A DNA stretch of 64,000 nucleotides from contig CM035359.1 in the NCBI GenBank assembly GCA_020137815.1, forward strand, positions 4,340,001 through 4,404,000. Direction: 5' to 3'. The translations under genes were made by a program, and so were the position numbers. Origin of the DNA: Hormiphora californensis. Taxonomy: Eukaryota > Animalia > Ctenophora. The stretch's first letter is position 1; each line of letters opens with the position of its first letter. The notes beneath the pieces are model-generated. The model was not told where the DNA came from. It ran no database searches and saw only the letters and a program-made list of their open reading frames with translations. Shown here piece after piece: positions 3,341-38,610 of this stretch.

Positions 3341-3715
3341 AGTCCGTCATACACATTTTTATCAAGATGGGCTAAAATAAACGAAGGAAGATTATCGCTG
3401 GGCTATCTTAGATAGTATATCTACAAGTGTGTTGTAGAGCGCAGACAGTCGGAAGAGATATTCAACGAAGCCTCCAAAAGGGAGCAAAACTTTTGGAATT
3501 TTCCCAAATCACAGCAAAGATCAGGATATGAAGTGGGGTGTATAATTTAACAAAGAAATAGCGAACTGACAGCTTTCTGCAGGTAATGCCTGTAAATGAG
3601 CGAATATACAATACGGTCACGCGGGGGTTGATCATATTGTCGAACCCCAATTACTCAAGAAGCTGATCAAGACACAATAGTAATTAGTAAAAACTGAATG
3701 GGGTGAGTCTAAACC

Positions 3716-3855
3716 AGGAACCGACCGAATCAGGAAATACTGGTCCCTGATTGGCTGATAACCAGTCACGTGACCTTATAAATAACGAGTTCTGATTGGT
3801 TGTTTACTTGTTTTGGTCGCGACCAAAACAAGTAAACAACCAATCAGAACTCGTA
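3716..3855. mobile_element. Short MITE, CAGGAACCGACCGA family
   Basis: Same element as 16301-16403 and 26186-26307 (TIR CAGGAACCGACCGA). This copy is rearranged. Confidence 0.7.
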
Positions 3856-6504: not shown

Positions 6505-7107
6505 TTATCCACGGGGAGGAGGGTGTCGGAGTCCCTTTCCGAAGTTAAGCCTGGCCTGGTTACACCCGTGGTGTATAACGATGGGGTTGTTGTTCTTGGG
6601 ATTGGGACTTCCGTTAAGTGGATGCCAGCACTTGCCACTGGTCTTGTGCTGGATGGATCCGCTAGGGAGGAACCTAAACCTGGCGTGAGGCTTTCCACAG
6701 TCACGGTGAAGGACGAGGGGCTCGTTGTCGCCGGGCTTGGGCTTCCTGTGGTGGGGTACAATACAAAGTCCGGAGGTTGTGTGTCGGATGGATCCGTCGG
6801 GGAGATAACAGAATTCAAGGCGCTTTCCACCACATCCAGTATGTGTGACGATCTTGGTTCCGGGGGGAGAGTTGGGTCGACCGCCGAGAGGGTGGACACA
6901 CTTGTTGCTGTGGTGCCGGATAGGGGCACAGTTGGCTGAAAATGGTAGGTGTCAGAAGCTATTGAATATAGACCCGAAAAGACAGTAGAAAATTATAGAT
7001 AAATGTCTTGTCTTGATCAGACTCTCTCGTGCTAATAACGGCTAAATAGAAAATAACTTACAGTAAACCAGGGCGATGAGAGCCGAGAAAACAATGAAAA
7101 GCTTCAT
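6505..7107 (-). CDS. Secreted mytilectin-like beta-trefoil lectin, 158 aa, 2 exons (7107-7062, 6935-6505)
   Basis: Exon 1 encodes the signal peptide MKLFIVFSALIALVY, followed by a 126-nt GT-AG phase-1 intron. Exon 2 reads SNCAPIRHHSNKCVHPLGGRPNSPPGTKIVTHTGC...IRHTTSGLCIVPHHRKPKPGDNEPLVLHRDC...IQHKTSGKCWHPLNGSPNPKNNNPIVIHHGC...RG*. It has three ~45-aa repeats matching the MytiLec pattern H-x-x-SGK-x-x-HPxGG-x-x-P-x-N-x-x-LV(L/I)H. The frame differs from the ORF-track call 6474..6929. Confidence 0.9.
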
Positions 7108-7130
7108 GGTGACAAAATGTTAGTTTTGAA

Positions 7131-7351: not shown

Positions 7352-7789
7352 CAGGGGGTATGTATAAACCCGTATAGCCCGGATAGTCCGGATAATTGAT
7401 GTTTTTGAGATATCCGGATAACCTAGCTAGGATAAGCGAATCCAGATATTAGATAACTCGGATACTGAAATCCAGATTACTCGGATAACTCGGATAAATG
7501 TCTGGATAACTCGGATAAATATCCAAGGTCCAGGGTTCGATTCTGGTCTAGCGCTCGTCGTCTATTCCACTAAGCTATGATTGGTACGGGGATTTACCCG
7601 GATAGTGCACTCGTTGCAAAGGTTCACCTAGTCGTACAGGTGTCACACTAATTAATTAGTGTGTTATAATTGTAAGGTGCTCACGTGTAGAAATACATGT
7701 GTTCATCACTCATCAGTGGCTTTGAGGAGCCTGTAAAAGGGACATCAAGCCAACTGCACGAGTTTGCATTACTATTATATAACTTAAAC

Positions 7790-7885
7790 GTCCGGATAAC
7801 TCGGATAAATGTCCGGATAACTCGGATAAATGTCCGGATAACTCGGATAAATGTCCGGATAACTTGGATAAATATCCGGATAACT
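7790..7885 (+). repeat. 21-bp tandem repeat (CCGGATAACTCGGATAAATGT), left array
   Basis: 4-5 units, with further degenerate units at 7380-7525. Confidence 0.9.
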
Positions 7886-7892
7886 TCGGGTA

Positions 7893-9345
7893 GTGGAAAT
7901 TCTTTTCTGCTATGACCATTGTATGAAACGTCCAGAGGCCGCACAGATCAGCTTGGAGATAGATGATTTCCGGGCGCTGGACCTAAGCAAGGCAGACTTT
8001 GAAAAGATTTCGGGGGACATCGAGGAACACGACTGGGAAGAAATTTATGAGAGAAGTGGAGCGGAAAAGTTTCCAGAGGAGTTTCGACTTATCCTGTACA
8101 AAGCTGCTGTTAAGTACAGTCCTAAGAAGAAACCGGGCAAAAAGAGGAGCAGTCGACTCAAACTACTTTCACAAAAGAAAAGAGCAGTACGGGATAAGCT
8201 GACACGAGTCTGGGATAAGGGGGATGCCCCGACAGGGCAGATTCAAGCACTGGAAACTAGGATAGGAAACCTAAATTGGATGATAAGGGAGGAAGTGATA
8301 GAGAGTCTCCGAGTCGGCTCAGAAAGGAAAGGGGAGCAGTGGAGAAGATACAAGAGAACAACAAGGCTAACATCCTGGCTGAGCAATTCCAATCGGTTTT
8401 TAGTGTACCCAGAGAGGATACTGAGGTAGAAAATGTCTACCTCAGTATCCTCTCTGGGTTGGCAGACATTGAAAGAAGTAACTGCAAGGAGGGAGATGAA
8501 GAGCTGGAATTTACATGAGCAGAGTTAACAGAGGCTCTTATGGAAATTAAGAAAGGAGCGGCATCGGGACCAGACGGAATTCCAGCGGACCTTCTGAGGT
8601 CGTGTGCAGAAGCAGTGAGCAGCCCTCTGCACCTGCAATGTGGATGCACTCGCTCCAGGAAGGTAGGGTCCCAGAAATGTACAAGAACTCTATCATCGTT
8701 CCTCTGTACAAAAAGGGAAGTCGGGCGAGGGCAGAGAACAATTGCAGACCCGTGTCATTAACTGACCATGCAAGGAAAGCCTTTGAGAGGAAAAGACTGG
8801 TCAAGTACTTTGAATCCAATGGCCGGTACCCTGCCGACGGTCCTCCCTGCTGACGGGTCGACAGGGAGGGCATTCGGCAGGGAGGGACGGAGGGTGGCAT
8901 ATAATAGGGGTCTAATGCCCTACATGACGAAATTAGTATAAGATCGCCGTTGGCAGGGAGGGCATTAGACCCCTATTTCCTGCCCTCCCTGCCGAATACT
9001 CAGTGAGTTACTCCGAATGAGTTTTCGGCAGGGAGGGCATTTACCCATCCTTTTACCCTCTGTACCTACGATCAGTAGGGAGGGCGTTTCACTCCTGCTG
9101 TGAACTCGAGAATTTGGCCGGCAGGCCAAATACGAAGAGTTCACTGTGTATTGTTCCTCTCAGTATCGTTAGGGCTTAGGGTTAGGGTTAGAGTTAAGGC
9201 AGTGGTTAGGGTGAGGGTTAGGGTGGTGGTTAGGGCAGTGGTTAGGGTGATAGTCTCTTCCTGGACATACAGCACGGCTTTATGAAGCGCAGAAGCACAC
9301 TTACACAGCTTATTCAGCATTTTGACGAGGTATATGAGAATTACG
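7893..9345 (+). mobile_element. Degenerate LINE (CR1/Jockey-group) ORF2 fragment, interrupted by a nested insertion
   Basis: Frameshifted motifs LSKADFEKI..DWEEIY, KANILAEQFQSVFS, ASGPDGIPADLL and IIVPLYKKGSR...RPVSLT, then VKYFESNG continuing after the insertion as LFLDIQHGFMKRRSTLTQL (start of the RT domain). Confidence 0.88.
8824..9254. mobile_element. Nested non-autonomous element with GGCAGGGAGGG motifs and a telomere-like tract
   Basis: Splits the LINE frame between ESNG and LFLDIQHGF. Contains the inverted repeat GGGGTCTAATGCCC/GGGCATTAGACCCC and ends in TTAGGG-like repeats (9168-9250). Confidence 0.7.
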
Positions 9346-9356: not shown

Positions 9357-9764
9357 CGGATAACTCGGATAAATGTCCGGATAACTCAGATAAATGTCCG
9401 GATAACTCGGATAAATGTCCGGATCACTCGGATAAATCTCCGGATAACTCGGATAAATACCCAGATAACTCGGATAAATGTCCGGATAACTCGGATAAAT
9501 GTCCGGATCACTCGGATAAATGTCCGGATAACTCGGATAAATGTCTGGATAACTCGGATAAATGTCTGGATAACTCAGATAAATATCCGGATAACTCGGA
9601 TAAATGTCCGGATAACTCGGATAAATGTCCGGATAACTCGGATGAATGTCTGGATAACTCGGATAAATGTCTGGATAACTCAGATAAATGTCCGGATAAC
9701 TCGGATAAATATCCGGATAACTCGGATAAATGTCCGGATAACTCGGATGAATGTCCGGATAACT
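9357..9764 (+). repeat. 21-bp tandem minisatellite (CCGGATAACTCGGATAAATGT), about 19 units
   Basis: Explains the SYPDIYP and RITRINV pseudo-ORFs. Confidence 0.95.
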
Positions 9765-10437
9765 AACGGAGACTTGTGACACTTGTTGAAACCCCATATA
9801 TGGATCTTTTCCCTCCCCCTGGATCTTTTCAAGCAACAATCTCTATACGAGGAGTAACCCGGATGTCAGAAATGCTATATGTTCACACATTATTTCACAA
9901 TCACACCACCGATCACGCCGCATGAAGAAGTGTTACTGCTGACAAGACAGATTGTCTTTCTAAGACTCTGTTGGGGTGGTTTAGCGAATTTAACAGGTAG
10001 ATCAGGTACGGAATGGTAGTGAGATGATGCCAAGCTTACTAGATCACTGATCCACTTTTAACTGGGTAACGAAATCCATACCAATATATTTTCTTTGCAA
10101 TAAATACTGTACCAGAGCAATAGAGCATTGTGATCCTGACGGTCAAATACCTGAATAAATAGCTCTTGCCTCTTACAAACAGAGTCGTCTGTGGATTAGA
10201 CAGCTGCCTTTAAGATTGCAGTTGTACCTTATCTAATTTTCACCAAACAGGGGTCATGAATCATGAACGAATGGTGAACGAATGGTGAGAGAAAGAGAAA
10301 GAAGAAATGATAAGTTATAAAAGACATGCGCTTCATAAAATTCTCTACATTTTACGTCAATGTTTGCGTCCAGATTATCTCCAGAAGAAGAGAGAGGTGA
10401 GGGGGAATAAAGAAATCTGAGATAGAAGCTTAGAGAG

Positions 10438-10469
<32 letters not shown>

Positions 10470-10971
10470 CGGAGAGTGAAGTAGGAAATATGAGCTTACT
10501 AGGTCATGCTTATTAAATCAGTTTTTCACCTTATTGAATCAGAGCTCCGTCTGTTATCAGATTTTCTTCCCTGCTCTTATCATGTTTCACGGAGCTGCTT
10601 TTTTTCAGCACACCTTTCCATGTGTTTCTACTAGCTGATTGGTTACTTTTTTGAGTCGCTTGACACTGTCCGTGCTATGAACAATTCAACACTTTTTAGC
10701 ATTGTCAATTATATTTGAGCAGGAAGCAATTAGTTGTACTTTTGCTTGGTAACGAAATAACCCCTCCCTTGCCGGCGCACGAAGGTCGCGAGGTTATTTC
10801 GTAACCAATGCTTTTGCTCAAGTGTTAGTGCAATCAGTGGCAAATACTAAAGTTTTGAAATAAAATGTTTAAACAATACTTATTTGCTTATTTACTTATA
10901 CAATTATGTTATTTTGCCGGTTTTTAACTAACAGATTATACTGATTACTGACCCTTCTACGCCCCTTATAG

Positions 10972-11585
10972 TCTGTAAGGCTACACGTTGGCGCAATTGA
11001 GTCAGTAGACTTTTTGGAAGTAAGTTATTCATTCCAAATATTGAAATAACTGATGATTTGGAATCCATTCCAAATCATCAGTTATTTCAACCTTTACCAA
11101 CTTTTACACATTGAAGTTATTCTCAAATTCCTTACCTTTCCACACTCCTTACCTCTCCAGTCTCCATGCTCCTTAACTCTCCACACTCCTTATAAGGAGT
11201 GTGGTAAGGTGGCAAGGCCTTACCTTTCCACACTCCTTACCTTTCCACACTCCTTACTTTTCCACACTTACTTCTCCACATTCCTTACTTTTCCACACTC
11301 CTTACTTCTCCACATTCCTTACTTTTCCACACTCCTTACTTCTCCACATTCCTTACTTTTCCACACTCCTTACTTCTCCACATTCCTTACTTTTCCACAC
11401 TCCTTACCTTTCCATACTCCTTACCTTTCAACACTCCTTACCTTTCCACGCTCCTTACTTTTCCACGCTCCTTACTTTTCCACATTCCTTACCTCTCCAC
11501 ATTTCAGATTCCGATTGATGACCACCAAGGAGTAATTCTCAAGCTCGAACAAGAACTACCTTGGGATACAGGTCCAGGTGGATAG
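10972..11585 (+). CDS. Non-AUG upstream coding region (uCC-like) of the ODC-like gene; leader exons 10972-11019 and 11508-11610
   Basis: The spliced frame SVRLHVGAIESVDFLE|IPIDDHQGVILKLEQELPWDTGPGG* has no in-frame ATG. Candidate AUU starts are at 10996 (gcaATTg) and 11508 (gaa|ATTccg); TAG at 11583-11585. Splice sites are canonical (ttatag|, |gtaagt, ttcag|, |gtaatt). Confidence 0.65.
11128..11500 (+). repeat. About 19-20-bp tandem repeat (TTCCACACTCCTTACYT)
   Basis: About 18 units filling the leader intron, with degenerate copies to about 11770. Explains ORFs 11053..11535 and 11201..11518. Confidence 0.9.
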
Positions 11586-11909
11586 CACCCCCTGAAAACT
11601 AAATTGAAAGGTAATTCACATTTCCCACGTAACAGTCTCCTAGTTTCCACAGTACATACTAAAATTCCTTACTATCTACTGAAATCCACTTCTCCACACT
11701 CCCCAGTCCCTACTTTCCACACTTCTTACTTTTCCACACTCCAGACTTTTCCACATTCCTTAAATTTTTCTGCACTGCTCACCTTTTCATACCCTTCACT
11801 GTCCACTGATCCAAAATCTTCAATAATTTTATCGGAAAGAATTTTCCCGTAACTTTTCCATCCTCTTATAACTCTCTATCTTCCTATCCCTACCTTGCAG
11901 ATATTATAA

Positions 11910-14900
11910 ATGGACACCTCACTGATTTGTGCACAATTGAACACGGACATGGCAGGATCAGCGGCAGCGGCAGAACAAAATAATACAGTATTCCTTCTCT
12001 CTACAGCCATTTACCACGATATTGCAAAGGTAATTTTACTAGCGATTAGGAAAGCTTATACCATGGTACTAGTATACAGAACTGTTAACTGTGATTTCCT
12101 CATACTTAGATTCAAGATCAACTAGGTTCAGGAGCCAAGCTTCTCTTTGAGCCGGCGGGAATTTGTGGAAACGAATTCTTTTGTTTCCTCGCGGGATTAA
12201 ACGTCGGAATAATTGCTTCCAACCAGGTATAACAGTGAGTCAGGTAAATGTAAGGAGTGTGGAAATTCATACAATAAGGATAGCCATCGAATTATTATCG
12301 TGGAATTGTTGATTTACGTCGGATATTTTGAAGTTGTCACCCCTTCAAAAATTCCATAATAGATATCTTACAGGAAGTTTTGGACGCAGCAGAAAAATCA
12401 CACACGAACTTCGATTCGATCCTTTTGGGCGAGAATGTAATCGACAACTCTCTCTACAAGTAAGAAATGCATTCAGTTGAAACTATATCATTGTTCACCT
12501 AGTCACGGTCCTATTATAATAGTAATACTAGCCAGGATCCTATATGCTATAGTAGTAGAGACGCGATCATTGCTTCTACCTATACCCATCTCCCACTTCT
12601 ATAACTTTTTTATACTGAACTGCAATTTTTCCAGGGCAGCAAGTGTGCACGGATGTAAATCCTACACTGCCACAAGTGTATCAGACATGACCAAGATCAC
12701 GACACTAGTCGGACACGACTGCCAGTAAGTTATACACGTTCCTTGGTGACATTGACACCGTGCGCGACCAAGATTGAGCTCACACACAGGTGTCTGCTCC
12801 GCCTCAAAAAGGGTCGTTTCTTTCAAGGGATGTTGCACGCGATCCACTGGACCGATTTGCATCCGGTTTGTCGCAAAAGACTACAAATGATCCTAATATA
12901 CTGGAAAATACCCGAGAAGTTTGTCTGTGAACAGGAAGTGGGTCAAAATTGACACTGAAGTCAAACCTATAATCTGGCTTCCGAGAGTTTCTGCACTACG
13001 CCCATGCGATTTAGAAGATATTGGGAGATATTTTGATGCAATTAGCATCAGCTATTAATGCCGGGTATTTTCCAGTACTCACAAGAGTTCAACCTATCTT
13101 CTGATACCCTCAGATTCATTCTACACCGTCTGGGAGTGGTGCAAAAAGGCTCGGAAGCCAGATTATAGATTTGACTTCAGTGTCAATTTTGACCCACTTC
13201 CTGTTGACAGACAAACTTCTCGGGTATTTTCCAGTAAACTAGGACCAATTTGTAGTCTTTTGCAACAAACCGGATGCAAATCGGTCCAGTGGATCACGTG
13301 CAATTTGGCTTGAAAGACTCGACCCTTTTTTAGGGGGCGGAGCGGACACCTATGTGCGACCTCGATCTCGCACGCACTAGGTGTCAATGTCACCAAACAC
13401 GTTCCAAAGTTAAGCATTCTGATTATCATCGATTAGCTGTTGATCCATCATGGCATTTAGCCCCCCCCCCCCTCATCCTGCCCCCTCCCGTCCTGCAGGT
13501 TTGTATTGACAGCTCCCACGCTCCCTGAACTGGATACCATGCTCTCCCAGTGTGTTCTCCCCCCAACTATATCTGTGGATCTCCACAATACTGATCTAGA
13601 GGCACTCAGCAGGCTGATGATGAAGTGGAATGTAGGAAACATCCACGTGGGAAGTATCACTAGTGAGTAGTTAATAATTAACTTATTATTAGTTATTTAA
13701 TAAATTATCTAATCAAAACAGAGGTCCTGATCGGTGTTAGGATAATAGGCAGATGTTTTGGCCCATGGTATCACACTATCACTGATAACAAATAAAAACA
13801 AGGAAGTTTTAGTTCAACAGTTTACACATGTTTCAATACAAAATTGTATTTCATCAGAACTGAATCACACTTGTCCCGTTCCAGGTAAAGAAAAGATAGA
13901 ACAAATTTATAATGTCATGTTATACAACATCTCGCAAAATATATAGAAATAGGTTATACTAATAACGTGATTTATAAAAGGAATAAAGGTACTAGATTCA
14001 TATCTATTAGATCAGGATAGAATGGTAGAGACCCTCGGTAGCCTCGAATTTGAATGAGTACTGATTTGAGGATGCAAAATGATAATCGTAATCTAATGTA
14101 TCTAATGGCGTCATTATAGCTTTGTTTCGACTTAACCGAGTACAAGCCAGCCAGACGCTTGTAGAACCGCTCTGCTTCTGGTCCGAATGTTCCGATTGTT
14201 GAGAACACAAGTGGGGTGAAGGTAGCTCGTTCCACATTTAGGATTCTCTGCCCATAGGCCCTTTTCTTCTGACCTTCATGGATCTCCGCAGTTTTCTCGA
14301 TGGTGTTAATTTGATTTGTTGGTGCCAACGAGTTAACCGTTCCAGGTTTCTTGCTTGCTCCTTCATAAAGCCATCCAATTAGAGATTGTATTTCTTGTGA
14401 TGTCTGCAACTACCCATGATCTCGCTTCTCCGGTTTAGGAGTTGGTGGTTCCTGGACTCTATCAAAATCTCCATCTTTTCGGCAGTGCACAGGTCACAGA
14501 ACCGATCCCCAATTCTGTACGGTCTTCCCTTTTTCCTCACTTTCCAAGTGATCCCGAATGTGATCCCCCTGTCCTTCAACTCCCACACCTTTTCAGACAG
14601 CCTTGTAGATGTTCTTTTTTCGGAGTTGTTGAATGTGTGCTTGTGCTGGCTGAATCGGGTTTTAAATGAGTTCCCTGTTAACCCGATGTAGAGAAATTTC
14701 TGGTTGCAGCTGGTCTTCAGTTGAGCTTCGTATACCAATGATTCGGTGAGGCACTTTCCATCCAATGGACAACTTCCCTTGTCCTTACAGTTGCATAATT
14801 TATCAGGCACATCCGTTGGTTTCGGGCCCCCATGTGCGAGTTTTTTGTTGTGGGCCTTTATCCTCGATTCCATGTTTTTCATGCAACTGTATGATACCTT

Positions 14901-16622
14901 GAGAGTGTTTTTGTTGAAGATCTGGCTGTAAATGTGTCCTGCTGGAAAGTATCTTGCCACTAAACCAAGAAACTTTCGTCCCAGGTCCGTTTCAACATCC
15001 ACAGAAAATGGTGGGTTAAACCATATTACCCTTCGCCGTCCTTTCCTTTTCTTTTTCCCTTTTCTCGCCACGTCTTTATATTCCGTTGAGAAGCCCTTGT
15101 AACCACTCTGCTCCAAAGCTCCTTGGTAGTGATATCGTGCCGCTTGGAAAGCACTTGGACTGGATGACAATCGTCTTATGCGATCCATTACCATGTCAGG
15201 GATGTTCTTCATATATATATATATATATATATATCACTGATAACTAAATTACAGGTGTGAACGAAGTTGGAGATTTAGCATCTCTTCTCAGCCTGCTACC
15301 AACACCTCTAAATCCTGTGGTGACTCTATCACCTTCCTTCCTTGATCACTCAATGTTTGTGGCCACCCGGGTCCTGGATAAGATCACCAAGGTATGTAGC
15401 AAGTAGCAACCCCCCTCGCAGATATTGTTCTCAGACAGTGTTTACTAAAATGGTAGTACCTATAGAGGGCGCCAAAACCCGATAGTGCTCGATCAATGAT
15501 TGAGAGCTGGTTCAAACAAAGGGAAACAAGAAATTTTGTCAAACAAATGTTTCACCCGTAAGGGATCTTCAGTGACAGTAATAAACTACTAAATGGTAGT
15601 AAATATTGTCTGGTCAAAGCTCTGTTAAACCATATATTATGCGTGAGAACACCCAGAGTATTACCCTGATTCAGTTTCATAGTGCATAATATGGTTTTTG
15701 TAGATCATATACCAACTGATTCTCTATATAAAACCGGTAAGAATACATCCCCTACAATTCTCCAACTAGTCACCCTTCTCCCCTCAACTAGTCACCGTTC
15801 TCCCCTCGGCCTCAACTAGTCACCCTTCTCCACTCAACTCTCCCCTTAGGATAATGGTGAGGTAGACGTGTATGTTGACATGTCGGTGTTTGATGAACTG
15901 ATTTGCTACATGGATGACATTGACAACATATCCATCCTCAATGGGAACAAGGAGGAGGGAGCTGATCAACCTGCCACAATTCTCGGTGAGCATGTTAACC
16001 CCCCCCCTCCCCCCGGCCGGAGATGACTGAAAATCCATAAATTACAATCCATGCTTCTCCATAGAAAACAACCCATATACTATCGTATCCCCGGTATAAA
16101 TACATATCTACTGTATAATTTTCATCACACGTGCAGGTAACAGCTATGATGAGAGCGATGTGATAGCAGTCGAGCAGCCCGCGTCCCACCTCTCCACGGG
16201 AGATTGGATCTTCCTCTCTAACATCTCCCTGGTCTGTCTGGAGGGAGGCTGTGATGTTCTCTTACTGGACAAGGATAACAGGTATAATGAAACTACGTAC
16301 CAGGAACCGACCGATCAACAACCAATCAGAACTCGTTATTTAGGTCACGTGACTGGTTATCAGGCAATCAGGGACCAGTATTTCCTGATTCGGTCGGTTC
16401 CTGCATTTGACCCATGTTTCTTTCTTTTTCTAAGATGAGAAACTATATAGGAGGGTTCGGCAGATCAGTTCGATTCGATTAGTACGTTTCATCGAATTTA
16501 TGATTCTAAATTTTGTTTTCAGGGTGGTGTCTCGTGAGATATACGATCAGGAGGCAGAAAACTCTGCCATTCAACAAATTCCTACCACTAGGATGAGAAA
16601 CAACAGCATCATGGTCAACTAA
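11910..16622 (+). CDS. Catalytically inactive ornithine decarboxylase homologue (antizyme-inhibitor-like), 364 aa, 9 coding exons
   Basis: Exons 11910-12029, 12110-12226, 12374-12459, 12635-12724, 13499-13662, 15255-15391, 15850-15985, 16137-16281 and 16523-16622 are all GT-AG and phase-compatible (1095 nt). The protein is colinear with ODC: LAGLNVGIIASNQEVL...LYKAASVHGCKSYTATSVSDMTKI matches LAATGTGFDCASKTEI...IKYAANNGVQMMTFDSEVELMKV; VYVDMSVF matches YYVNDGVY; ILGNSYDESDVI...LSTGDWIFLSN matches IWGPTCDGLDRI...MHVGDWMLFEN. Confidence 0.85.
12743..13396. mobile_element. Mutator-like MITE with ~240-bp TIRs and a 9-bp TSD
   Basis: TTGGTGACATTGACACC...GGTGTCAATGTCACCAA, with TSD ACACGTTCC at 12734-12742 and 13397-13405. 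Confidence 0.88.
13818..13862 (-). ncRNA. Minimal type I hammerhead ribozyme of the Penelope element
   Basis: Minus strand CAGTT-CTGATGA-AATACA(attt)TGTATT-GAAA-C(ATGT)G-TA-AACTG: intact core, 5-bp stem I, 6-bp stem II, palindromic minimal stem III, GUA cleavage triplet. Confidence 0.85.
13887..14336 (-). mobile_element. 5'-truncated CRE-clade (RLE-type) non-LTR retrotransposon nested in the Penelope element
   Basis: VNSLAPTN...HEGQKKRAYGQRILNVERATFTPLVFSTIG.FG.EAERFYKRLA...RLSF...IRGYRG is the CRE C-terminus. 11-bp TSD CCGTTCCAGGT at 13876-13886 and 14337-14347. Confidence 0.85.
15537..15577 (-). ncRNA. Second minimal hammerhead ribozyme-like motif (solo Penelope pLTR remnant)
   Basis: Minus strand TGTCA-CTGAAGA-tCCC(ttac)GGGt-GAAA-C(attt)G-TT-TGACA: conserved core, 5-bp stem I, GUU triplet. 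Confidence 0.7.
16301..16403. mobile_element. Short MITE, CAGGAACCGACCGA family
   Basis: CAGGAACCGACCGA...TCGGTCGGTTCCTG TIRs. Another full copy at 26186-26307. Confidence 0.8.
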
Positions 16623-17491
16623 AATCCAATATTCAGTTAAAATCCTGGTTTTCTTTGTTGAGTAAGGAGTGTCCACTCAGTCCAGTGTCCACCCATTACT
16701 CAACAAGGTTTTCTCGGTTAAAGGGTATAGAGAAAGGGTTGAGGACCTTTCTACCCTTTCTCTTTACCCTACTAGAAGGCTACTAGAAGCTATATAGTGT
16801 CTGTAATGGGGTAAATGATAAAAGTGGGTAAATTTGGGAACTATATATATGTTTGTCTGCATGTTTGTCTGTTTTTAATCAGTAAGACTTTGACAAAAAT
16901 ACTCGTTTTGTGGTCAGCAGTTGTATTCTTGAAGATGCTGGAAGATTTTCTTTTGATCAGATCGTATAAAGAGTGGGGTGTCTAAAACCGAATTCATATA
17001 GAGTGTATAGTTATGATGATGACGTTGTGTACCTTTTTAAAGATACTGTGACTGATGTTAGCTACGCTCGTTTTAGTTTGGTGGAACGCGTTCAAAGTAC
17101 AATGTGATAATTAGCTTGATCTGGACTCTTTTTTAAACCTTTTAATGACAAACAGGTTGATTGACGAATATATTTTATTATAAAAATCTGATTCCATAAA
17201 AAACTTTTAGTTTTATTTACAAAAAACTGTTCTTAGCTCTTCGCATATCATCATCTCTCTTTGCCAAATGTGTGTAATACAGAACATTTATCATTTTATT
17301 TCACTCCCAGTTCCCACTAGATTCTAGAGATCAGGGTCGATTAAATGTTATGGAAGAATCCTCACTGTGCCCTAATTGTGTTCTCTCTTAAGTTACTCAA
17401 CAAGTTCTCTCTTCTCATAGCTTTTCAGTAAATCCGCCACACCACTTTAGGGATCCGAATGGTTGAGAAAGGCCGGGCTCAACAAGATATA

Positions 17492-17793
17492 GTTAGGAGT
17501 TGGAGGGTGCAACTTTAGACTTCTTCACTCGGGCTGGCACCTAGAACAGTTTTATGTTAAAAACTATAAAATTCCATCCAAATGTAAGCTACATTGGACA
17601 ATGGACATGCTGAATTTCGAAGCTGTATGTATCTCTTTTTGCTTACGATCTTTGTGTTTGAATTGTAACTGCTGGAATCACTGTCACTTTCCTCTGTTGA
17701 AATGATGCTATCTTTTGCTACAAAGAGAAACAAAATAAGATACTTAAACGGTGACAATAGGTGTGATCTGTGAAGAGCATATGTTCCGTTGGC

Positions 17794-17877
<84 letters not shown>

Positions 17878-18705
17878 AGGCCAATGCTCTGACCACAGTT
17901 CTCGCGCGAGAATGGGTCAGGCCAATGCTCTGACAGTGTGTGTGTGAAAGGTTACACAGGAGAGCAGTAAATCTAAAAAGAAAAAAGAATTTGACGAAGA
18001 ATTGTTGAAAATTGGGCATAGAACTGCTGCACTGATCAATAAGGCACCAGTTTCACTAGGCTAACATATAATTAACCTATGTTGGTATTGGAATTAGGTC
18101 TAGGGCTGATGTTGACTAGAAATGTCGCAGGGATTGGGGCCTCTTGAATGGCGGCTGGTAAGTCTACACCCTCAGTGTCTGAACTGTGCTCACGATGTCT
18201 TATTTCCTCATTCCCTACTGCAGAGTTTTTAATATTGAAAGTTATTTATAGTTTTTAAAACCTGTACCCTCGCAATAGACGTGGTTTCGGGTAAAAAGAG
18301 GAATCCATATAGGTTGTTAGCATCAACATAACTGACTTTTGTTTTAACAACTTTTCTTAGTTAGCTATGTTGATGCTAACAACCTATATGGATTCTCATT
18401 ATTTTTCAAATTTTGATATTTTGCTGCTCTGCTGTGTTACCTTTTGATAAAATTGGAGCTGATGATGCTGGTGAAGCAGTTAACGAATTGTGAACAACCC
18501 TGAAAGATACAGAAAGAGTTTTGGTTACTATGACAACACATACCGCTGTCAAGGGGACCACGAATGATGGGAGGTAGATTCCTTGATTTCGTGTTCACTT
18601 CCGTTAGAGCGGGGTTCTCCCTCAGGTATACCGACTGTTTGGGGATCTCACCAAGGCCGGGTTTCGGATTAAACCCAACGGGTGAGGCACTGCTTCGGGA
18701 CATTC
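17492..18705 (-). CDS. Putative small multi-exon gene of unknown function
   Basis: Splice-bounded open segments at about 18705-18544 (MSRSSASPVGF...), 18500-18440, 18218-18076 (GNEEIRHREH...), 17717-17647 (KDSIISTEESDS...) and 17541-17492 (VPARVKKSKVAPSNS*). One junction is not phase-consistent. Confidence 0.4.
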
Positions 18706-19456: not shown

Positions 19457-22400
19457 TCAGAAGAAGACATTCTGATCTTTGGAGCACAGTTCAGCATTTC
19501 TCGGTCTATAGACGCCACACCATCCTGGCTGAGACCCAGGAGGTCCCACCAGACTCTCCGGTTCCCCAGAATCCTGCTCGAAACTCAGCCTGAAACTAAA
19601 CCTCTTCTCCAGTAGGTCGGCTGGTGGGGGCGTGGTCTGGGTTGCCATGTTCCTCCGTTTTGGTGGCGGTATTGGGACACACTGGGTACTAGTACTGGTG
19701 ACTCCACTAACGCTCCGTATCAGGGTGGGTCGTGTGGTGGTGGGTCGCATTGACCGGGGTAGAGTCCTCTGGATGCGGGATAGCAGGGTGCGGGGTGGAG
19801 GGGAGATGTACGCGATGTTATCATGCCACCCCTGATCATCACCAGCTGATCCTGAACCACCACCTGTAACTCGTGGGAGGCAGCTTAGAATACACATTTA
19901 GTTTGTTATGTTCTAACCCTCGAAACAAAGTCTAGCTAGGCAACGTTTAGTTTTTCATTACATTACATTACATAAAAGTTGTACATGTTCAAAATGGAGC
20001 TATAAATGTGATAAAGTCGGACCCCGATTTACCGGACACCCCGATTTATTAGGTAAAATTATCCTTTCCCCAAGATAACAACGAATCAACAAACTAACTA
20101 ACTAACTAACAAAATAACAAACAAACAAACAAACAAGATAACTTACTCAGGGGTGGGACGTATTCTTTTTTCTGTTTTTGTCGGAACAAAATGTAAAGAA
20201 GAATGAGGATGGATAGGACGAGGAAAAGACCGCAAATACCACCAGCACTTCCAACTAGAAGCGTCGTGTTTACACCTAATTTGATGGAAATTAGGTGATA
20301 ATTAAGTGGTAATTAGCTGTTAATGAGACGATAATTAGCTGTTAATTAGATGATTATCTGGGTATTAAACACATCATGCACAGTGTGCTATTTACTGACT
20401 TGAGTTTGTAGTGGAAACAACTTGATAGGAATCTCCATTTCCCTGATCCACAGGTCCCGGATCAACTATCATCTCTGCTGCACAGACACAGTTACACAAA
20501 CTGGTTACCATGGTTACCATGGTTAGTAACCATGGTTAACCATTATATAATAGGTTACAATACGAGAATTGAGGCTTCGCATAAAACAGGACAAAACTGA
20601 TCATGATTGTTCATTTGAATATACCTATAGAAATGGTTGCATTTGCATAAGCGTCCTCTCCCACTCCGTTGGATGCCATGACTATGTAAAGTCCCTGGTC
20701 AGAACTCTGGGCCTAGGAAAAACAGGATAGAATTAACATAGATAATACTGTTTGGAATGATTTTGTGAAATTTCGGTATCAGTAAACCCAAATGTCGGTA
20801 TCAGTAAACCCAAATAAAAAGGATATATAATTCCCTTTTTACAATTAGTTTTACCTCATCGATAATTAGTATGGCTGATTGTGCAGTGTACCGTCCACCT
20901 GTCACTATTGGTACCCTGTCCTCTCCCTAAAAATGTTAGAAAGATTGAAAATGTTTGAAAATATGCACCAAATCAAACTGTTACAGTAAATTTCTTTTGA
21001 TTCTTTTTCAATACTATTATTAAGTAAATAAATACCTTGTACCAAGTGACATTAGGTGTAGGATACCCATAAACGACTGCTTCAACTGTTATCTGTGAGT
21101 TCAGTTGAATACTAATATCTGACAGCGTAATACTGGGTGCTATCTCATGACCTGAAGAGATATAACCGCATTGTTACCATGGTTACCGCACGGTTACCAT
21201 GGTTACCGCATTGTTACAATATCACGCAGCAAGAGAGCTGTCACCACGGCCTGGTGCATGATGTGTTCATTTTCATAAACATATAGATCTCAAAAAACAA
21301 TTTCGTTTTTCATTTCCCATATGCATGCATATGCAGAGGTTTTAGGATATTTTACTTCCCTTTGATCATATTCAACTGATAATAACCTAGCTGTTTTGTT
21401 TCTCAGTCCTCCCTGCGCCAACAATGTATCGATAAAAAGCTTAATTATTGTTATTACTTAATTCGTTAACTTATAAGCTAGTATTTCACAGATAAAAATT
21501 GAAACTTTACAATCACAGAATGAATCTGATTCGGTGGTTTTCGATCATTTTCTTTGCCATGGCAACCCTTTTTGGACTATCCGGAAACACTCTTATAATC
21601 TACTCCTCTGTCCGATACAATTCTATCGACTTGGACGAAGTCTCCGTAATGTTTGTCCGGAACCTAGCGGTAGCAGATTTGATCTACACAGCCCTCGGTG
21701 TCCTACCCCGGTTTATCTCATCAGTTATCGATGGAAACCCCTTTGGCATTAGTTGGTGTGAGGTGATCTACTGGGCCAAACATATTTGTGGGATGGTGAG
21801 TCTGTGGACGATCACATTCATTACCGTCCACAAGATGGTGCAAGGTGCTAATGCCCTTCAGGGATATGATCTCATCATCCTTGGCATCTGGGTTCTTGGG
21901 CGCCTTGTGGTCCTCCTCTATTCTCATTATGGCTAGCATCGCCGTAGCTGGCCACCCCGTGTTTAGCTTTGATCCGGTTGACGCAGAATGTCGGCATAGC
22001 TGGACCAAGATAAGGAAAACTTCAAGAAAAAATGTCGAGATAGCAGAGTTGTGTATTGAGGTGTTTGGGGTGTTGGTTCCCTTGGTTACTACGTTGGTTT
22101 GCAACTCACTGCTCCTCAGTGTTGCCCTTCGGAAACGAATTACTCCCCGATCAGGCCTCAACTATAAGGCCCTAACTACCGTGGTAACCCTGACGACAGT
22201 GTTCCTAACAACCTGGTCCCTTTACCTATTCGGGGCACTAAGGAACCTAGTGGGCGGTGTCAACAAGTCAAATGATGGGTTCGCACTGGCCGAGAGTTCT
22301 TTGATTTGTATTGGAGTCATGGTGAATCCAATCCTGTATACAATTACCAATCGCAGGTTCTGCCTTTATGTCCGGTCCTTGGTATGCAAGAGGGTGGAGG

Positions 22401-25400
22401 ACGAAATAGAACCTCTTATTATTCATAGTTAGAACAGAAGATGAGGGGAAGAACCCAGTATTCCAGGTTCCTAAGTCGTCTTTAACAAACGAACAAACAC
22501 ACAGAACACTCCGTATTTTCCTAGTCTCAACTGCCAATTAATTCTTGGAAACCTTTTAAAAACAATTTCGTTGGTAAAATTTAATGATTTTTCTTTTGAA
22601 GATAGGGGAAGCTCTATGAAAAGTATTTGTCTTATTAAGTTGTGTTTTTATCTTCGTACACGGACACCATGGTCTTTTTGGTTGGTCCTATATGGTGCAC
22701 CATAGGACCAACCAAAAGAGACCGTTCCATAAAAATCTATGAAACCAAACCACCCACTCTACCCACAGACACCGCGTATTAAATAAACGGAATGGAACAA
22801 ATCCTTGTGTTTTAATAACGTACCTACTACAAAGTCAATATTAAGTTGAGCCGTATAAGTATCCACTTTCTGATTGACGGCTCGGCAGATGAGAGTGCCC
22901 ACATCACTTTCCCGAGCAGAAATAACACGAAGGACAGAGGTAACTTTGTTGGAAGTCGCCTGCTGGGTCACGGTATACCTGTGAAAAAGGGGATGAGCTA
23001 GGGGGTATTATATTAGTAGCTGCCCCATACACGATCAGAGGACGCACAGGAACACTGTGAGACAGCTGTATCAGAGTACCTCAGTATGGAGTGGCTTAGG
23101 GCTTAGGATATGGAGATAAGCACCCAGTTTACACAGTGATTGGGAGAGACCTCTGACTTTTTATAGAGTGGTGACAACTTATTCACGGATTTTAGAAATA
23201 CGGCACACGTGGAATCTGCTGAATCACAAGTAGACAACTAGGGAAAAAGAGAAATAATTCCCCCAGCAATGAAATTACCTATCATCATAAGACGCAGATA
23301 TCTCAGCACCATCTTTATACCACGTCACTACTGGGACAGGGTAGCCCAGCGCGATGCATGTTATCCAAATGTTCTGTGAGTAAACCGCCTCTGCAATATC
23401 CGGCCCCTCAATTGAAACTGGTAGGGTCATATCTGGAAAAAGTCGATGGGATAAGCTGAGAAAACAAGGTTAGCTTAGTAAAATGTTTCCAAGATCTCAG
23501 ATGCAGCTCTCGTGCTGCTCGCGGAATACACCGATCGAGCGGAGCGAGTTTTACACGTGTTAACTTACTCTTGACAGTAACTGACATGTAAGATTGTGTT
23601 ATCTCAAGGGTGTTATAACAAAAACATTGATACATCCCCGCCTCCGTCATTTCCAGCCCACTCATTATCAGACTGCCATCCTCTTGCTAGTGGGAGAGAG
23701 AGGAGGGGTTGTTGGGATATTAAATGGGAGAGGGGGGGGGGGGTGTTGGGATATTAGATTGGGGGGTGATGGAGGTTGTGGTGGGGGTGGGGTGGGGTGG
23801 GGTGGGGTGGTGTACTGGGGTGTTCCAGCCCATTCATTATCAGACTACCGTCTTCTTGCTAGTGAGGAAGGGGAGGATGTCGTGATATTGAATTGGGGGA
23901 TGGGTGTTGGGGTACTTGACAGATATTGGATCATCCAATCATTAATCTGGCTGTCATGTATTCCCATGTACCTGTAGCTTCAACTCTTGATATATCGAAA
24001 AAGGGGTGCCGAACCCGAATGATATAATATGATCATGGCACATACCTGAAATCGGTCTCCATCCACAATAGATTGCCCATCCCGTAACCAAAGAACAGAT
24101 GGTGGGGCGGTTGGATCTCCGCTAGTGTATGGGGTGCCTGCAAATAAGATTAAAATTGAAATGTGACCATGCATGCTATGTACTACTAATATGTATTGTT
24201 TAGTTGATATGGGCTGATGGTTTGAATAGCGCTACAATTGAGTAATTGATTCAGTGGATATTTGGTTTGCACTTTATATGGAGATCATGAGATAATGAAA
24301 CCAGCGAATTACCTGAGCATTGACAATCAAAAGTAAGGGGAGTAAGATGTTCCACAGTTTTAGCAGAGAGAACGGTATCAAATGCTATATCCTCTGAAAA
24401 TAAGTATTGATTAGAACCTATTTACTAATTATCTTTACCTAATCAAATAATTATAATTTACTGAATCAACCTCTCTCTCTTTACCGATAACATAAAGGCG
24501 GACGACGACAACTGCGCTATCCGTGTATACGTTGCTGTACTGGCCCCAGTATGTACCCCTGTCTTCTGTTTTAACGTTCCTAATTGAGATATCAGTTATA
24601 AACTAATAATAGTAATATTATGAATGGAGATATCAGAATCAAAATTATAACAGTCCGTCATACACATTTTTATATGGAATTTTGTGCTCGTATTTTCTGT
24701 CAGAATCTGTATAACACGCACGTGAATTTGAGCCGCGGCGCGGCGCATCTGCACGTGCGGGTTTTCAAGAGAGAGTGAGAGACAAACGTACAACGTTAAT
24801 GTGCGTCTCTCTCTTTAATCTCGCACGTGAATTTGAGCCGCGGCGCGGCGCATCTGCACGTGCGGTTCTTCCAGATAGAAATTCCAAATAGAAATCCAAG
24901 ATAGAAATTCCAAATAAAAATGTGTATGACGCCGTGTAATGCAGCTGTTGAATGTTGGTTTATCAATTGTACATACGATATGAGGAGTTGTCGGCCGTAG
25001 TCAGCGGTCGAGAACCGGCTCCCGGAAGAAGTATCAATCTCAGTTGACACACCCAAGGTCCATTTGTATTGGGGAACAGGCCAACCTATAACACACAAGT
25101 TAGCAACTTCATAACTATGTATCCGTCGAAGCTGAAGCTGAGTAGCGTCTAAATACAAGTTCCACAATCGATACAGTGTATGGGCCGTCGACGAAATTTT
25201 ATGGTTAGTTGCAATAGTTAATTTTCGAATGACGTCATTATATTTATTAATATCTATAGAAGTTAGGTTAGGGCTGTGACTGCTATATTTGGTTTAGCAG
25301 ATATAGTGCTCACTTGGTGACATAGACACTTGGCGCGACCGAGATTGCGGGGGTCGCGCCAGGTGTCTATGTCACCAAGTACTCACCTGTAGCCCCGGCT

Positions 25401-27494
25401 GTCAGAACAGCGTCATCTCCTTTCTTAACTAGCACATAATGGTCTTGCACGAACTTTTGGGCGTACGTTCCTTGCCCGTCCACTAAAAGATATGATTTAA
25501 ATTGAAATACATTTTGTTAGTGTATATTGCAATATAACTGTGAAGTAAATGTATAATGTATAATGTATAACTGTGAAGTAAATGTCTTGAATCTGTGATA
25601 CATTCAACTGTACAATATATACCTTGTATATCAATGGTTGCGGCACTGGTTTGTCTTCGCTCCGGGTTTGCATTAACGTTGACTGCTTCACAAGCGTAAT
25701 CACCACTGTTAGTTTTGGATGAAAGAGTTATTAAACTCAGAGAAATTATAATTAATTATAGTTAGTTAACCAAATTAAGTTAATTCTAATACCTGTCAGA
25801 TGTAGAAGGATTGAAAATGATGAGAGACCCATACTCCGATTCACTCTTGTACTCTTGAAACATGTTTTCCACCGACTGAGGAACAATGGATGAACAGTTG
25901 ATGATGGACGACTCAAAGTTTTAATCCAGGAAAAGACTTATTGATTATTGAAGAACAATGTTATGTTATACACAGCTGCAGCTGTGATCATAGTGTAGGG
26001 GTCAGCACACACCAAAGTTAAAATTAAAATCAAAATTAAAATTTTGACGTGTGCTGACCCTAAAAGTAGAACGGTATTCCGCGCCGTTGACTAATTTTGA
26101 TCATGATGTAACCAACAAGATACGCCTAGATGGCTGCAGCTTTTGTTCCAAAACCCTCGAAGTACGTTGTAAAGTAGGTACCCTACAGGAACCGACCGAA
26201 ACAAGTAAACACGTGTACTAAACAACCAATCAGAACTCGTTATTTAGGTCACGTGACTGGTTATCAGCCAATCAGGCACTAGTATTTCCTGATTCGGTCG
26301 GTTCCTGTCACTCACACTACGGTGAAGGTGTACTATACCTCAACAAGATTCCCATCCTTGTACCAGTTGATGGTAGCAGCGGGATTACTGGGCGGTGGTT
26401 GGCAGGGAATCTTCAGATAACTTTGCGAGTTTGTCACGGTTTGAGCTTCGGGGTAGTCCGCGAACTCAGATTCCAAATCTAAATGAAGCGTTAATTAACT
26501 GAGTTAATTAATGGTTGGTGGTCGTCACCACAAGGATAATTGCTGCAGTGAATATAACTTACTAAAGAGTAAAGTTACTATTTAAAACACTTGGTTACAA
26601 AGTCACCCCAGATATTACTATACGCGCGTTGAGGGCCGGTGACTTCGTAACCATGACAACTGTACTAACATGTAACAATAACGAGGGCCCCCTGACTGAC
26701 AAGACTGTAACCATATCCATCTGATAGTTGGCAGAAGTAGTACCCTCCCTCTTCCTTTTGGAGGTTTCCCAGAACTAGTGTACCACTCGTCCCTCCCGCC
26801 AAGGTAGTCCACGAACTGGGATAATGGGGCAATTATATAATTATATTTAGGTTAGGGATTAGATGAGAGGTTTTTAGTTAGGACACAACTACCTAATTAA
26901 CCTGCAGTTACCTTGTGCAGTTACCCTAACTAACTACCAAATTACAGGAGTGATTCCTATAGGAGTTTCTTACCCTAATATTCTTTTAATCACCTAATTA
27001 CCCTAATTACCCTAATTACCCTAACCTAATTACCCGCTAATTACCTGATAACAGGGGTGATATCGACAGTAAATAGCCAGGAAATGGTCGGAGTTCCGAT
27101 TGTGGCTGTTCCAGCACAAGACAGTGTAACAGAGCTACCCAACGTTGTCATGGTTTTACTCTTAGGTTGCACTGTTATCGTCATCTTTGGCTCTGAAATT
27201 TACCAAACTTGTTATTATTTAGTTTACCTATTACTAACTATTTAAGTTGAAGCAAATTGAATTATCAGAAGCCGGAAGCCTGTAACTATTGTTTATGAGT
27301 GGTACGAAAATGTGAATTAATGTGAACTCGTCTGTATCTCAAAAAATACCAGTAGTCCTATAGTTTCATTCAATACCTGGTTTTTCGCCTGACGGCAGCA
27401 GGAAATTGTCTGTAGCTGTAGACTTGACGGTTCTGCATTTCAGTATTGTCGGCAGGACAATAAAACATAAAAAGCAACCCAGCAATCGCTGCAT
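19457..27494 (-). CDS. Immunoglobulin-superfamily single-pass receptor / cell-adhesion molecule (signal peptide, 6 Ig domains, TM, ~145-aa tail), about 20 exons
   Basis: Exon 1 (27494-27377) reads MQRLLGCFLCFIVLP. Ig motifs: VTLSCAGT..ISW / GYYFC; IPCQPPPSNPAATINWYKDG / GDYACEAVN; GWPVPQYKW / DRGTYW; FDCQCSG..LWLRDG / GMYQC; ITCIALGYPVPVVTWYKDG / GTLICRAVN; YGYPTPNVTWYK / DQGLY. TM LLVGSAGGICGLFLVLSILILLYILF-RQKQKK at about 20276-20147. Last exon about 19864-19457. Confidence 0.88.
21520..22432 (+). CDS. Intronless rhodopsin-class (class A) GPCR nested antisense in an Ig-gene intron; one +1 frameshift near 21840
   Basis: TM1 GLSGN, TM2 NLAVAD, TM3 preceded by WC, HKM at the DRY position, TM6 FLTTW, TM7 NPILY. 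ORFs 21499..21936 and 21845..22432 join if one base is removed (HKMV.VLMPFR). Confidence 0.85.
24651..24936 (-). mobile_element. MITE, PIF/Harbinger-like (inverted copy of 3057-3340)
   Basis: TIRs with TAA on both flanks. Confidence 0.8.
25315..25378. mobile_element. 64-bp mini-MITE related to the 12743 element
   Basis: TIR TTGGTGACATAGACAC; flanks GTGCTCAC/GTACTCAC. A partial copy lies at about 6092-6121. Confidence 0.75.
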
Positions 27495-36496: not shown

Positions 36497-36575
36497 CATG
36501 GTGGTGTAGTGGTCAGTACACTCGCCTTCCATGCGCTAGGTCAACAGGTTGGGGCCCCTGGCAGCCAATGCCACT
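36497..36575 (+). mobile_element. tRNA(Gly)-derived SINE head or tRNA pseudogene
   Basis: A-box TGGTGTAGTGG and CTCGCCTTCCATGCG anticodon-arm-like segment; the B-box is degenerate. Confidence 0.5.
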
Positions 36576-38299
36576 GAGTCTAGGTCCTGACCGCCAAACT
36601 AGATTGGTAGAGCCCTTTCGGAGGTCGCAAAAACTGCATTTTTAAACCCAAATTTTGGGTTTTGCCTGGGTGGCCCCGGGGGATTGCGAGAGAAAAAAAT
36701 TTTCCCAAAAATGGACCTTTGCTAAAAGCCATGAAAAAATGGGAATCAGCCCCCACGGCATCTTTTCCGAACACTTTTTTATGAAAAACCCGCGGGCCCG
36801 ATGCAAAAACCGTCTAGACTTTTTTGCGGAAAATAAGAAACTCCCCTCGTTTGTTTCCAGCGGCATCCAATGCAAGGGGTTTGGGGGGTAGGTGGCTGGG
36901 GGCGCCAGCCCCCCGAAATGGCCATGGTGCTTTAATTGTACTTGTAGCAGCTGGGAAAAATCTTTTTCCTTTCCCATTTCACGCAATGCAAAAAAGGGGC
37001 CCCCCAACCCCCCCAGGGCCCTTGATAGTAGGAACAAAAAACCCCAGCAAAAAATCAAAATTTTTCAAGGTCAAAAAAAAACTTTTTTGTTTTTGGGGAA
37101 GCTTTTTTTGGTTGAAATTTTTCAAAAATAAAATGTGATTAAGATTGATTTACAAAATAAACTGTATACAATGTACAAAAAAAAGTCCCAAATCGCATCT
37201 TTTTCCATAGGATATTACACTTTCTTTCCACATTTTTTTCCCCAATTGGACCCAAACCATGTCAACAAAGCTCTAAAAGGGTACAATGGTACCAAAATAC
37301 TAAAAAACCTCACATCCCAAAACAGGGACAGCAGAGTAGCTGGTACTGTCAGAAGGTTAAATTTTCCCTTTTTAAAAACACCTTATATCATTATTAAATA
37401 ACAAAACTTCGTAGGAAATTTTTGATTCAAATAGAAAGAAAAAATTTAAAAACCCCTCATAAAAAACGCGGGTTTCTTAAAAAAAAGTTAAAGCGGTTAA
37501 ATCTCCCATCCCGTTATCTTTTCCCCCCCCTCCCTATTCATACGCTCCCTTAAATTGTTGATGGGCAGATCGCTGGGAAAAACCTGTTTTTGGGGTCGTT
37601 CTGAAAAAGACAGGACCGAATTACCGGCCTTCGTAGCATCCGGTGGCCCCCAAATTTAAAACATTTTATCAAAAGCAGGCACCCCTGACCTCCTGTTGGG
37701 GGCGTTTTGAAAACCCGTGGCGTTGCCTGGGAGACGGCGCGGGGGGGGGTCTCTTCGGCCCTTTCCCCAATACAGTCATGTTGGAGTTTTTGGTAGGGGA
37801 AGCACCACTAGCCGGTTACAGCCCCTTTGTTGGCGTTTTCCGGGGAGGATCGGGGAGGGGAGGGAGACCCGGGGGGGGGATTTTTTGGCAGGGGACGTTT
37901 GTTCCGCCTCACCCCACGCGCAGCCCTTCTAAGTTTAATAGGCCCCCTGTCACGTCCCCTTCCCACTGGCGCCGCCACAATACTGTGTCTTGGGTTTTTT
38001 ATCCTCTCTTGGAGACCCCAAAAAGGGGGGACGGGGGGGGAGCTGTGAGAGTACCCCCACACACACGTTTATTCCCAACAGCTCTGAAATCCCCTAATTT
38101 TAAAAATTTCCCTTTTTTACACCCCGGTGTATGTCTCGAGGACTAAAAATCCCCAAATGGGAAAGTTTTTCCGTCGTGTGGGTGGGAAAGGACGGGGGTT
38201 TGTCACGGGCCCCCGCAGTTGTTCCCGACTTTTTTGGTCCTCATTATGTCCCAACGAGGAAAAGAAGGGATCGTGTTAAAAGGGAGGGGGAGAAAAGGG

Positions 38300-38610
38300 A
38301 GTGTTAGAATGGGAGTCATGGAGACCAAGGAAGTGTTAGAATGGGAGTCATGGGGCATGGGACCAAAAAAATTTGGGAAGGGGTTTCAGGAGCCCAAAGG
38401 ATGTTGAAGGGGAGTCATGGGAGTCGGGAAACCCAAAGGGAATTTTAAAATGGGATCATGGGAAAGGGAAATGTTAGAATGGGAGTCATGGGAGACATGG
38501 AGACCAAGGAAGTGTTAGAATGGGAGTCATGGGAGTTATGGAGACCAAGGAAGTGTTAGGATGGGAGTCATGGAGACCAAGGAAGTGTTAGAATGGGAGT
38601 CATGGGAGTC
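38300..38610 (+). repeat. About 31-40-bp tandem repeat (ATGGAGACCAAGGAAGTGTTAGAATGGGAGTC)
   Basis: Clean units at 38475-38610; noisier units upstream. Confidence 0.8.

Follow-up and report, generated by a model that had tools for sequence, protein, structure and literature searches.

The window analysed here, a stretch of 64,000 nucleotides (nt) from the ctenophore Hormiphora californensis (contig CM035359.1, positions 4,340,001 to 4,404,000), carries a nine-exon plus-strand gene that, on the evidence of profile comparison, descends from a eukaryote-type ornithine decarboxylase (ODC) with homology above chance. RNA shows that the gene is transcribed, and spliced in the modelled way. From what is established about ODC, the protein read from its exons cannot work by the catalytic mechanism of that enzyme; it appears to be a folded pseudoenzyme kept by selection. 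The best single option for its job is that of a putative decoy binding antizyme, an assignment that we regard as tentative.

The nine exons join to 1095 nt, i.e., 364 codons plus a TAA stop, and GT-AG ends are present on all eight introns. An in-frame TAA precedes the first ATG, and the frame therefore cannot extend upstream; a second ATG, at 11949, has a better context than the first. An intact spliced frame of 364 amino acids in nine exons had been claimed in an earlier note on this DNA. Frame and intron ends were verified, and seven of the eight joints were recovered in RNA. The gene is composed as follows, coordinates referring to the window.

11880..11900, plus strand: pyrimidine tract and AG acceptor 9 nt upstream of the first ATG, for cis- or trans-splicing (sequence; no RNA cover)
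11910..12029, plus strand: coding exon 1, first ATG downstream of the in-frame TAA (joint to exon 2 without RNA cover)
12110..12226, plus strand: exon 2, strand position of K69, the lysine of pyridoxal 5'-phosphate (PLP), here Ala56, and of D88, here Ile75 (profile alignment, RNA joint)
12374..12459, plus strand: exon 3, first half of the region of the antizyme-binding element (profile alignment, RNA joints)
12635..12724, plus strand: exon 4, second half of the antizyme-binding element, A123 and K141 kept, E138D, L139M (alignment, RNA joints)
13499..13662, plus strand: exon 5, shortened barrel segment with HVGSIT at its end, K169/G171 loop and most of the glycine loop gone (alignment, fold model, RNA joints)
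15255..15391, plus strand: exon 6, last barrel helix and strand (EPGRY lost) and strand 1 of the sheet domain (alignment, RNA joints)
15850..15985, plus strand: exon 7, sheet domain, C328 and D332 kept, Y323F, Y331D (profile alignment, hhalign, RNA joints)
16137..16281, plus strand: exon 8, C360Y, G387S, Y389V, with D361, D364 and the GDW motif kept (profile alignment, hhalign, RNA joints)
16523..16622, plus strand: coding part of exon 9 with the TAA stop (open frame, RNA joint)
16623..16828, plus strand: 3' untranslated region, extending at least to 16828 (run X9, contig pieces 16520-16722 and 16693-16828)

Four RNA runs were examined, of which X9 and X18 (one study) and X20 (another study) are poly(A) runs. 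Contigs from these three skip introns 2-8, and the exon pieces listed from RNA contigs of the two studies contain not a single differing letter; for these reasons we take the gene as transcribed and spliced in the modelled form and its exons as more than assembly noise. At the joint across intron 7, the short side comprises 21 letters only. Exon 1 and intron 1 are without RNA cover in all four runs, an absence that proves nothing, and the cover in run X22 is limited to a repeat in intron 8. Contig depth over the gene is 2-12, which is unreliable as a measure of expression. Spliced leaders are described as common in ctenophores (PMC8527503), and a search of the window with the ctenophore spliced-leader sequence given there yielded no match.

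To assess descent, we used our own profiles of 64 viral ODCs, 48 dereplicated ODCs and 64 bacterial diaminopimelate decarboxylases (DAPDCs, three members of which were checked as LysA), with 500 shuffles of the spliced protein as controls. The spliced protein reaches 27.0 bits against the viral profile (best shuffle 5.4) and 24.5 bits against the 48-ODC profile (best shuffle 4.8). An origin from DAPDC (LysA) was rejected: against 24.5-27 bits for ODC, the DAPDC profile gives 2.5 bits, with two shuffles scoring higher, and an hhalign probability of 1.8%. Most of the ODC signal resides in the C-terminal sheet domain (residues 222-312), which scores 21.8-22.8 bits, a value equalled by none of 400 shuffles, and which hhalign assigns to ODC with a probability of 74% (E 2.9e-5). 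The barrel half is colinear with ODC and matches the profiles weakly (0.4-1.9 bits). Within it, residues 83-129 align without gaps to residues 96-142 of human ODC (4 of 400 shuffles do as well), and the K69 strand scores below zero. Human ODC numbering was transferred via sequence P0110 in an alignment. Identity to the 48 ODCs is 14-21.5%.

The colinear ODC homology proposed in the earlier note thus stands, firmly for the sheet domain and weakly for the barrel. Of the checks it had named, the search for a match to the ODC fold family succeeded with our own ODC profiles and hhalign, while a Pfam scan returned no family for the nine single exons and two longer open frames, all of which are too short to inform. 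Introns 2 and 4 seem to coincide in position and phase with human ODC1 introns that we take to lie at c.276 and c.449. Intron 8 appears to coincide in position and phase, in an alignment by eye, with the human ODC1 intron at c.1241 (as described in PMC11203672). The apparent sharing of intron positions suggests that the gene arose by duplication of the animal's own intron-bearing ODC gene, rather than by transfer or as a retrocopy.

Catalytic residues, fold and selection

With eukaryotic ODC (fold-type III; PF02784 and PF00278; PDB 1d7k, 7odc) the protein shares the colinear architecture of barrel and sheet domain. In contrast to the enzyme, it is without K69, D88, R154, K169, G171, the glycine loop, E274, R277, C360, G387, Y389 and F397. 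Measured against the list of 18 key ODC residues given in PMC5574924, three to four are kept, the count depending on the alignment: D361 and D364 in any case, and additionally either H197 and S200 or G235 and possibly H197. The K69 position is occupied by Ala56, a placement that rests on colinearity; no lysine occurs between K50 and K87, and K50, the one nearest to the PLP site, falls before the strand. D88 is replaced by Ile75, R154 by Thr, E274 by Ser, C360 by Tyr287, G387 by Ser314 and Y389 by Val316; K169, G171 and R277 are absent, and F397 is unaligned. Accordingly, the losses that the earlier note had read from the motifs were borne out for Lys69 (FYAVKCN to LFEPAGI), the KFG loop, EPGRY, Cys360 (GPTCD to GNSYD) and the Tyr389 motif GAY. 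The spliced protein is strongly acidic, with a net charge of -32.

A further motif change, DIGGGF to HVGSIT, held in part. The glycine loop (235-237) is lost, at most one glycine being retained, while on the equivalence of the two motifs profile and fold conflict. In six of eight settings the profile alignment prefers, by 1.4-6 bits, to equate HVGS with the FHVGS motif of His197; one setting is a tie and one favours the glycine loop. If HVGS corresponds to the His197 motif, a whole strand-helix unit of the barrel would be lost. A single-sequence fold of exon 5 (predicted local distance difference test score, pLDDT, 60) consists of helix 8-16, strand 24-27, helix 30-42 and strand 48-51, which fits, with low confidence, HVGSIT as the glycine loop, with loops trimmed and all eight strands kept. 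Under either alignment, approximately 50 barrel residues are deleted. Isolated-exon folds carry little weight, because exon 6 folded alone gave two helices where strands were expected, a result that also counts against the decoy reading weighed below. Foldseek with the exon 5 model returned no match at E<=0.001.

Of the 43 columns that form the hydrophobic core in anchored blocks, 39 are still hydrophobic, compared with 25 of the 90 remaining columns; as the same ODC profile served to choose the blocks, the count is somewhat circular. It is this conservation of the core that leads us to infer a folded protein. Among invariant polar, glycine or proline columns, 5 of 13 are kept (K141, D332, G357, D361, D364). 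Of 300 simulations of random point mutation, 47 still had an open frame when identity had fallen to 90%, and none had one at 70%. GC content at third codon positions (GC3) reaches 52%, compared with 34-36% in introns 1-3, all three of which are short and free of repeats. Since G387, Y331, Y389, D134, K169 and the F397 loop are lost, the protein is likely a monomer. Selection had been argued in the earlier note from an intact frame in spite of intronic transposons. The open frame and the retained core speak for it; the transposon argument is weak alone, as by simple arithmetic the chance that three insertions all miss the exons, which make up about 40% of the original span, is approximately 0.2.

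Searches for orthologues and for other matches were negative within their scopes. In word-based searches of proteins, exon 8 and exon 5 each yielded six candidates, none of which was confirmed, and scans of Joint Genome Institute (JGI) metagenomes with exons 5 and 8 confirmed none of 537 and 588 pattern matches, respectively. The sole match of HMMER with exon 5 over 1.84 billion representatives, a repetitive B3-domain protein, was rejected as repeat-inflated. A PDB sequence search with exon 8 gave five matches, all at E>1; the ESM Atlas gave no matches or only sub-0.9 ones; pairwise BLAST of exon 7 against one ODC gave none; and Rfam over 9800-18500 gave ten matches, all far below gathering scores.

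Candidate roles of the protein

That the role would be non-enzymatic, as the earlier note supposed, agrees with the loss of the catalytic residues while spliced RNA, open frame and core are kept. As an antizyme decoy, the folded, non-catalytic and likely monomeric protein would bind antizyme, and active ODC would thereby be spared. The antizyme-binding element comprises ODC residues 117-140, with K115, A123, E138, L139 and K141 given as conserved residues (PMC4066113; the element is also treated in PMC6313458). It lies in the best-kept part of the barrel (human 96-155), which is almost without insertions and deletions. The element itself is ungapped, with A123 and K141 identical and with conservative changes E138D and L139M; over 115-141, 7 of 27 residues are identical to human ODC (by eye). 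The dimer positions 331 (Asp) and 389 (Val) are altered, as are G387 and D134, and positions 331 and 389 are described as governing dimer loss in AZIN1 (PMC5329145). Antizyme is regarded as general in animals, ctenophores not being among the nine phyla given in PMC1874602.

Several points weigh against this reading. Taken alone, the element is equalled in score by 154 of 400 shuffles and finds its best placement elsewhere, K115 is lost, and the sheet domain, with no such shuffle among 400, is far better kept. Known antizyme inhibitors (AZINs) are about half identical to ODC and thus far closer to it than this protein. The element residues that are kept are also near-invariant in viral ODCs, and may therefore be structural rather than antizyme-related. 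K125, K140, A325 and S329, described as the high-affinity residues of AZIN1 (PMC5329145), are here Val112, Thr127, Ile256 and Asp260; as evidence for an independent origin their lack is weak, since they are specific to vertebrate AZIN1. Knock-down of planarian ODC5/6 was, as described in PMC5574924, neither rescued by putrescine nor mimicked by difluoromethylornithine (DFMO), and mouse ODCrp did not bind antizyme in the study of PMC5518511. AZIN1 and many ODC homologues carry a polyamine-sensing upstream open reading frame (uORF), the upstream conserved coding region (uCC), which ends in Pro-Pro or Pro-Ser (as described in PMC2811004). No Pro-Pro-stop uORF was found on the plus strand of the genomic sequence 9800-11990; a spliced leader, if one is joined at the acceptor that precedes the ATG, would leave no space for such a uORF. 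Finally, the 64-kb window contains no second ODC-like frame. The "probable antizyme inhibitor" of the earlier note is thus too strong: the element, taken alone, does not rise above chance, the AZIN1 affinity residues are absent, and the planarian and mouse paralogues are not inhibitors.

Somewhat unlikely, though to be taken seriously, is a pseudoenzyme outside polyamine control that would act in some cell type as a binding protein or a scaffold, a role also suggested for planarian ODC5/6. This would fit the almost purely structural conservation (core 39/43, invariant polar 5/13), the identity to ODC of 14-21.5% and the planarian precedent of a phenotype independent of putrescine (PMC5574924). 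However, no part of the barrel is less disturbed than the antizyme-binding region, and no other partner or motif was found.

We consider it improbable that the protein is a heterodimer partner of active ODC, whose barrel its sheet domain would dock on, either poisoning the shared site (Tyr for Cys360) or activating the enzyme. The ODC sheet domain is the half that is donated across the dimer, and four of the five retained invariant polar residues lie in this domain (D332, G357, D361, D364). According to PMC5574924, such an arrangement had been brought up by Ivanov 2010, and dead paralogues of trypanosomatids activate the enzyme according to PMC3663545. On the other hand, the interface residues G387, Y331, Y389 and D134 and the F397 loop are lost, and AZIN1 keeps D332, D361 and D364 too. 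AZIN1 is described as a monomer (PMC5329145).

A relaxed or dying duplicate, transcribed but functionless, is very improbable. The lack of an orthologue in searches with exons 5 and 8 and the low contig depth (2-12, an unreliable measure) would agree with it. It is opposed by a frame still open, with eight GT-AG introns, at approximately 80% divergence, when neutral drift had closed it in every one of 300 runs by the time identity fell to 70%, and likewise by the retained core, the GC3 of 52% and the absence of differences in the listed exon pieces. Decay is thereby possibly limited to a very recent loss of function.

Scarcely to be expected is a protein that binds amines or polyamines without a cofactor, as sensor or carrier, or an enzyme whose new chemistry uses the leftover acidic pocket: D332, D361, D364 and probably H197 are kept in a protein of net charge -32 while all PLP chemistry is gone, but the dimer interface is eroded, whereas the ODC pocket, as we take it, sits between two subunits, and no lysine is placed to hold PLP, the nearest, K50, lying before the strand.

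More speculatively, and in our view unlikely as a whole, the gene could be an independent comb-jelly invention, in which cofactor chemistry and a strand-helix unit were discarded and acidic amine-binding residues and antizyme-facing helices were kept. The result would be a minimal regulator of the polyamine pathway (antizyme decoy, polyamine sensor or allosteric ODC partner), too diverged for exon-level detection by Pfam.

Repeat elements and neighbouring genes

The intronic elements reported in the earlier note are present in introns 4, 5 and 8:

12743..13396, no strand assigned: fold-back (nested inverted-repeat) element in intron 4 (sequence; an RNA contig skips 575 nt inside)
13972..15233, minus strand: fragment of a GIY-YIG element in intron 5, inferred to be Penelope-like (PF01541, E 8.9e-6; open reading frames)
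16297..16406, no strand assigned: short dispersed repeat in intron 8, two further copies in the window (sequence; very deep in RNA runs)

The 575 nt of the fold-back element skipped in one RNA contig (12786-13360) represent either a polymorphic nested insertion or a shorter family member elsewhere. In contigs of runs X18 and X9, the intron 4 element shows 16 A>G changes within one contig at 13109-13340, and the intron 5 element six T>C changes at 14418-14558. Changes of this type fit hyper-editing of repeat transcripts by ADAR, and the RNA may stem from other copies of the elements. The dispersed repeat of about 90 nt has three copies in the window (16297-16406, 26221-26307, 3715-3804) with a summed RNA contig depth in the thousands; it is probably an element resembling short interspersed elements (SINEs) or miniature inverted-repeat transposable elements (MITEs) that occurs in many transcripts. 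A repeat of this type is a feature of Pleurobrachia gene models, which makes a pleurobrachiid comb jelly likely; a literature search for the peptide of the repeat gave no paper. Minisatellites of 21 bp and 17 bp are located at 7785-7885 and 9357-9764 and at 11218-11501, and a decayed fragment resembling a long interspersed element (LINE) lies at 7884-8853, between two 21-bp arrays (by eye).

Further along the window, an intron-less receptor of the rhodopsin family is encoded on the plus strand at 21496-22432 in two overlapping frames, both of which match 7tm_1; the split is a frameshift or an assembly error. The receptor apparently lies inside a larger minus-strand gene. Minus-strand frames are scattered between approximately 17500 and 35200, and one of them matches RhoGEF weakly (E 0.0087), which suggests one large RhoGEF gene of many exons, convergent with the ODC-like gene. 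The spliceosomal introns, the receptor, the RhoGEF-like frame and the marine or aquatic nature of the RNA samples containing the sequence indicate a marine animal. A small two-exon gene at 6505-7110 (minus strand) encodes a ricin-B-type lectin domain and is probably secreted (PF00652, E 2.7e-6, just under the cut-off). Homopolymer-rich stretches with open frames of low complexity at 1-900 and at approximately 36500-46500 resemble noisy, unpolished long reads. At the end of the ODC-like protein (16240-16560), the last strands weakly resemble the DAPDC C-terminal hairpin (hhalign probability 1.8%), probably by chance.

Comparison with known inactive ODC relatives

Catalytically inactive ODC homologues have evolved recurrently (Ivanov 2010, as described in PMC5574924). 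The earlier note was right that inactive paralogues arise repeatedly (PMC5574924); not all of them sequester antizyme, planarian ODC5/6 and mouse ODCrp not being inhibitors. In the literature on ctenophores with antizyme or ornithine decarboxylase, judged by titles and the beginnings of abstracts, no such gene was found; the supplements of Ivanov may list more eroded cases. Genes as diverged as this one are easily missed by annotation.

Planarian ODC6 shares with the Hormiphora protein an ODC-derived, intact and expressed gene in which key catalytic residues including K69 are replaced. ODC6, the most altered in the table of PMC5574924, keeps 10 of 18 key residues, compared with three to four here, and is 27-33% identical to its paralogues, compared with 14-21.5% identity to 48 ODCs; the Hormiphora protein additionally lacks about 50 barrel residues. 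Like vertebrate AZIN1 and AZIN2 (PDB 3btn, 4zgz), it is a dead ODC homologue with positions 331 and 389 changed and an ungapped antizyme-binding element. It is far more diverged than these, without K125/K140 and A325/S329, and its antizyme binding is only putative. As AZIN1/2 arose in vertebrates or mammals (according to PMC2811004), orthology to them is not expected. Mouse ODCrp/Gm853 is an ODC paralogue without ornithine decarboxylase activity in the study of PMC5518511, which describes it as a homodimer with 41% identity to ODC that retains the catalytic residues and fails to bind antizyme. It warns that an inactive ODC paralogue need not be an antizyme inhibitor.

Inactive copies of ODC form a known and recurrent kind, of which the Hormiphora gene is an unusually eroded member. 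Should its protein, less than 22% identical to ODC, bind antizyme, it would mark out the minimal surface needed for recognition by antizyme, and antizyme inhibition would have an additional independent origin in a lineage that was likely the first to branch off among animals. Otherwise, the gene would offer a clean test case for the other roles of dead ODC copies, the question left by the planarian work.

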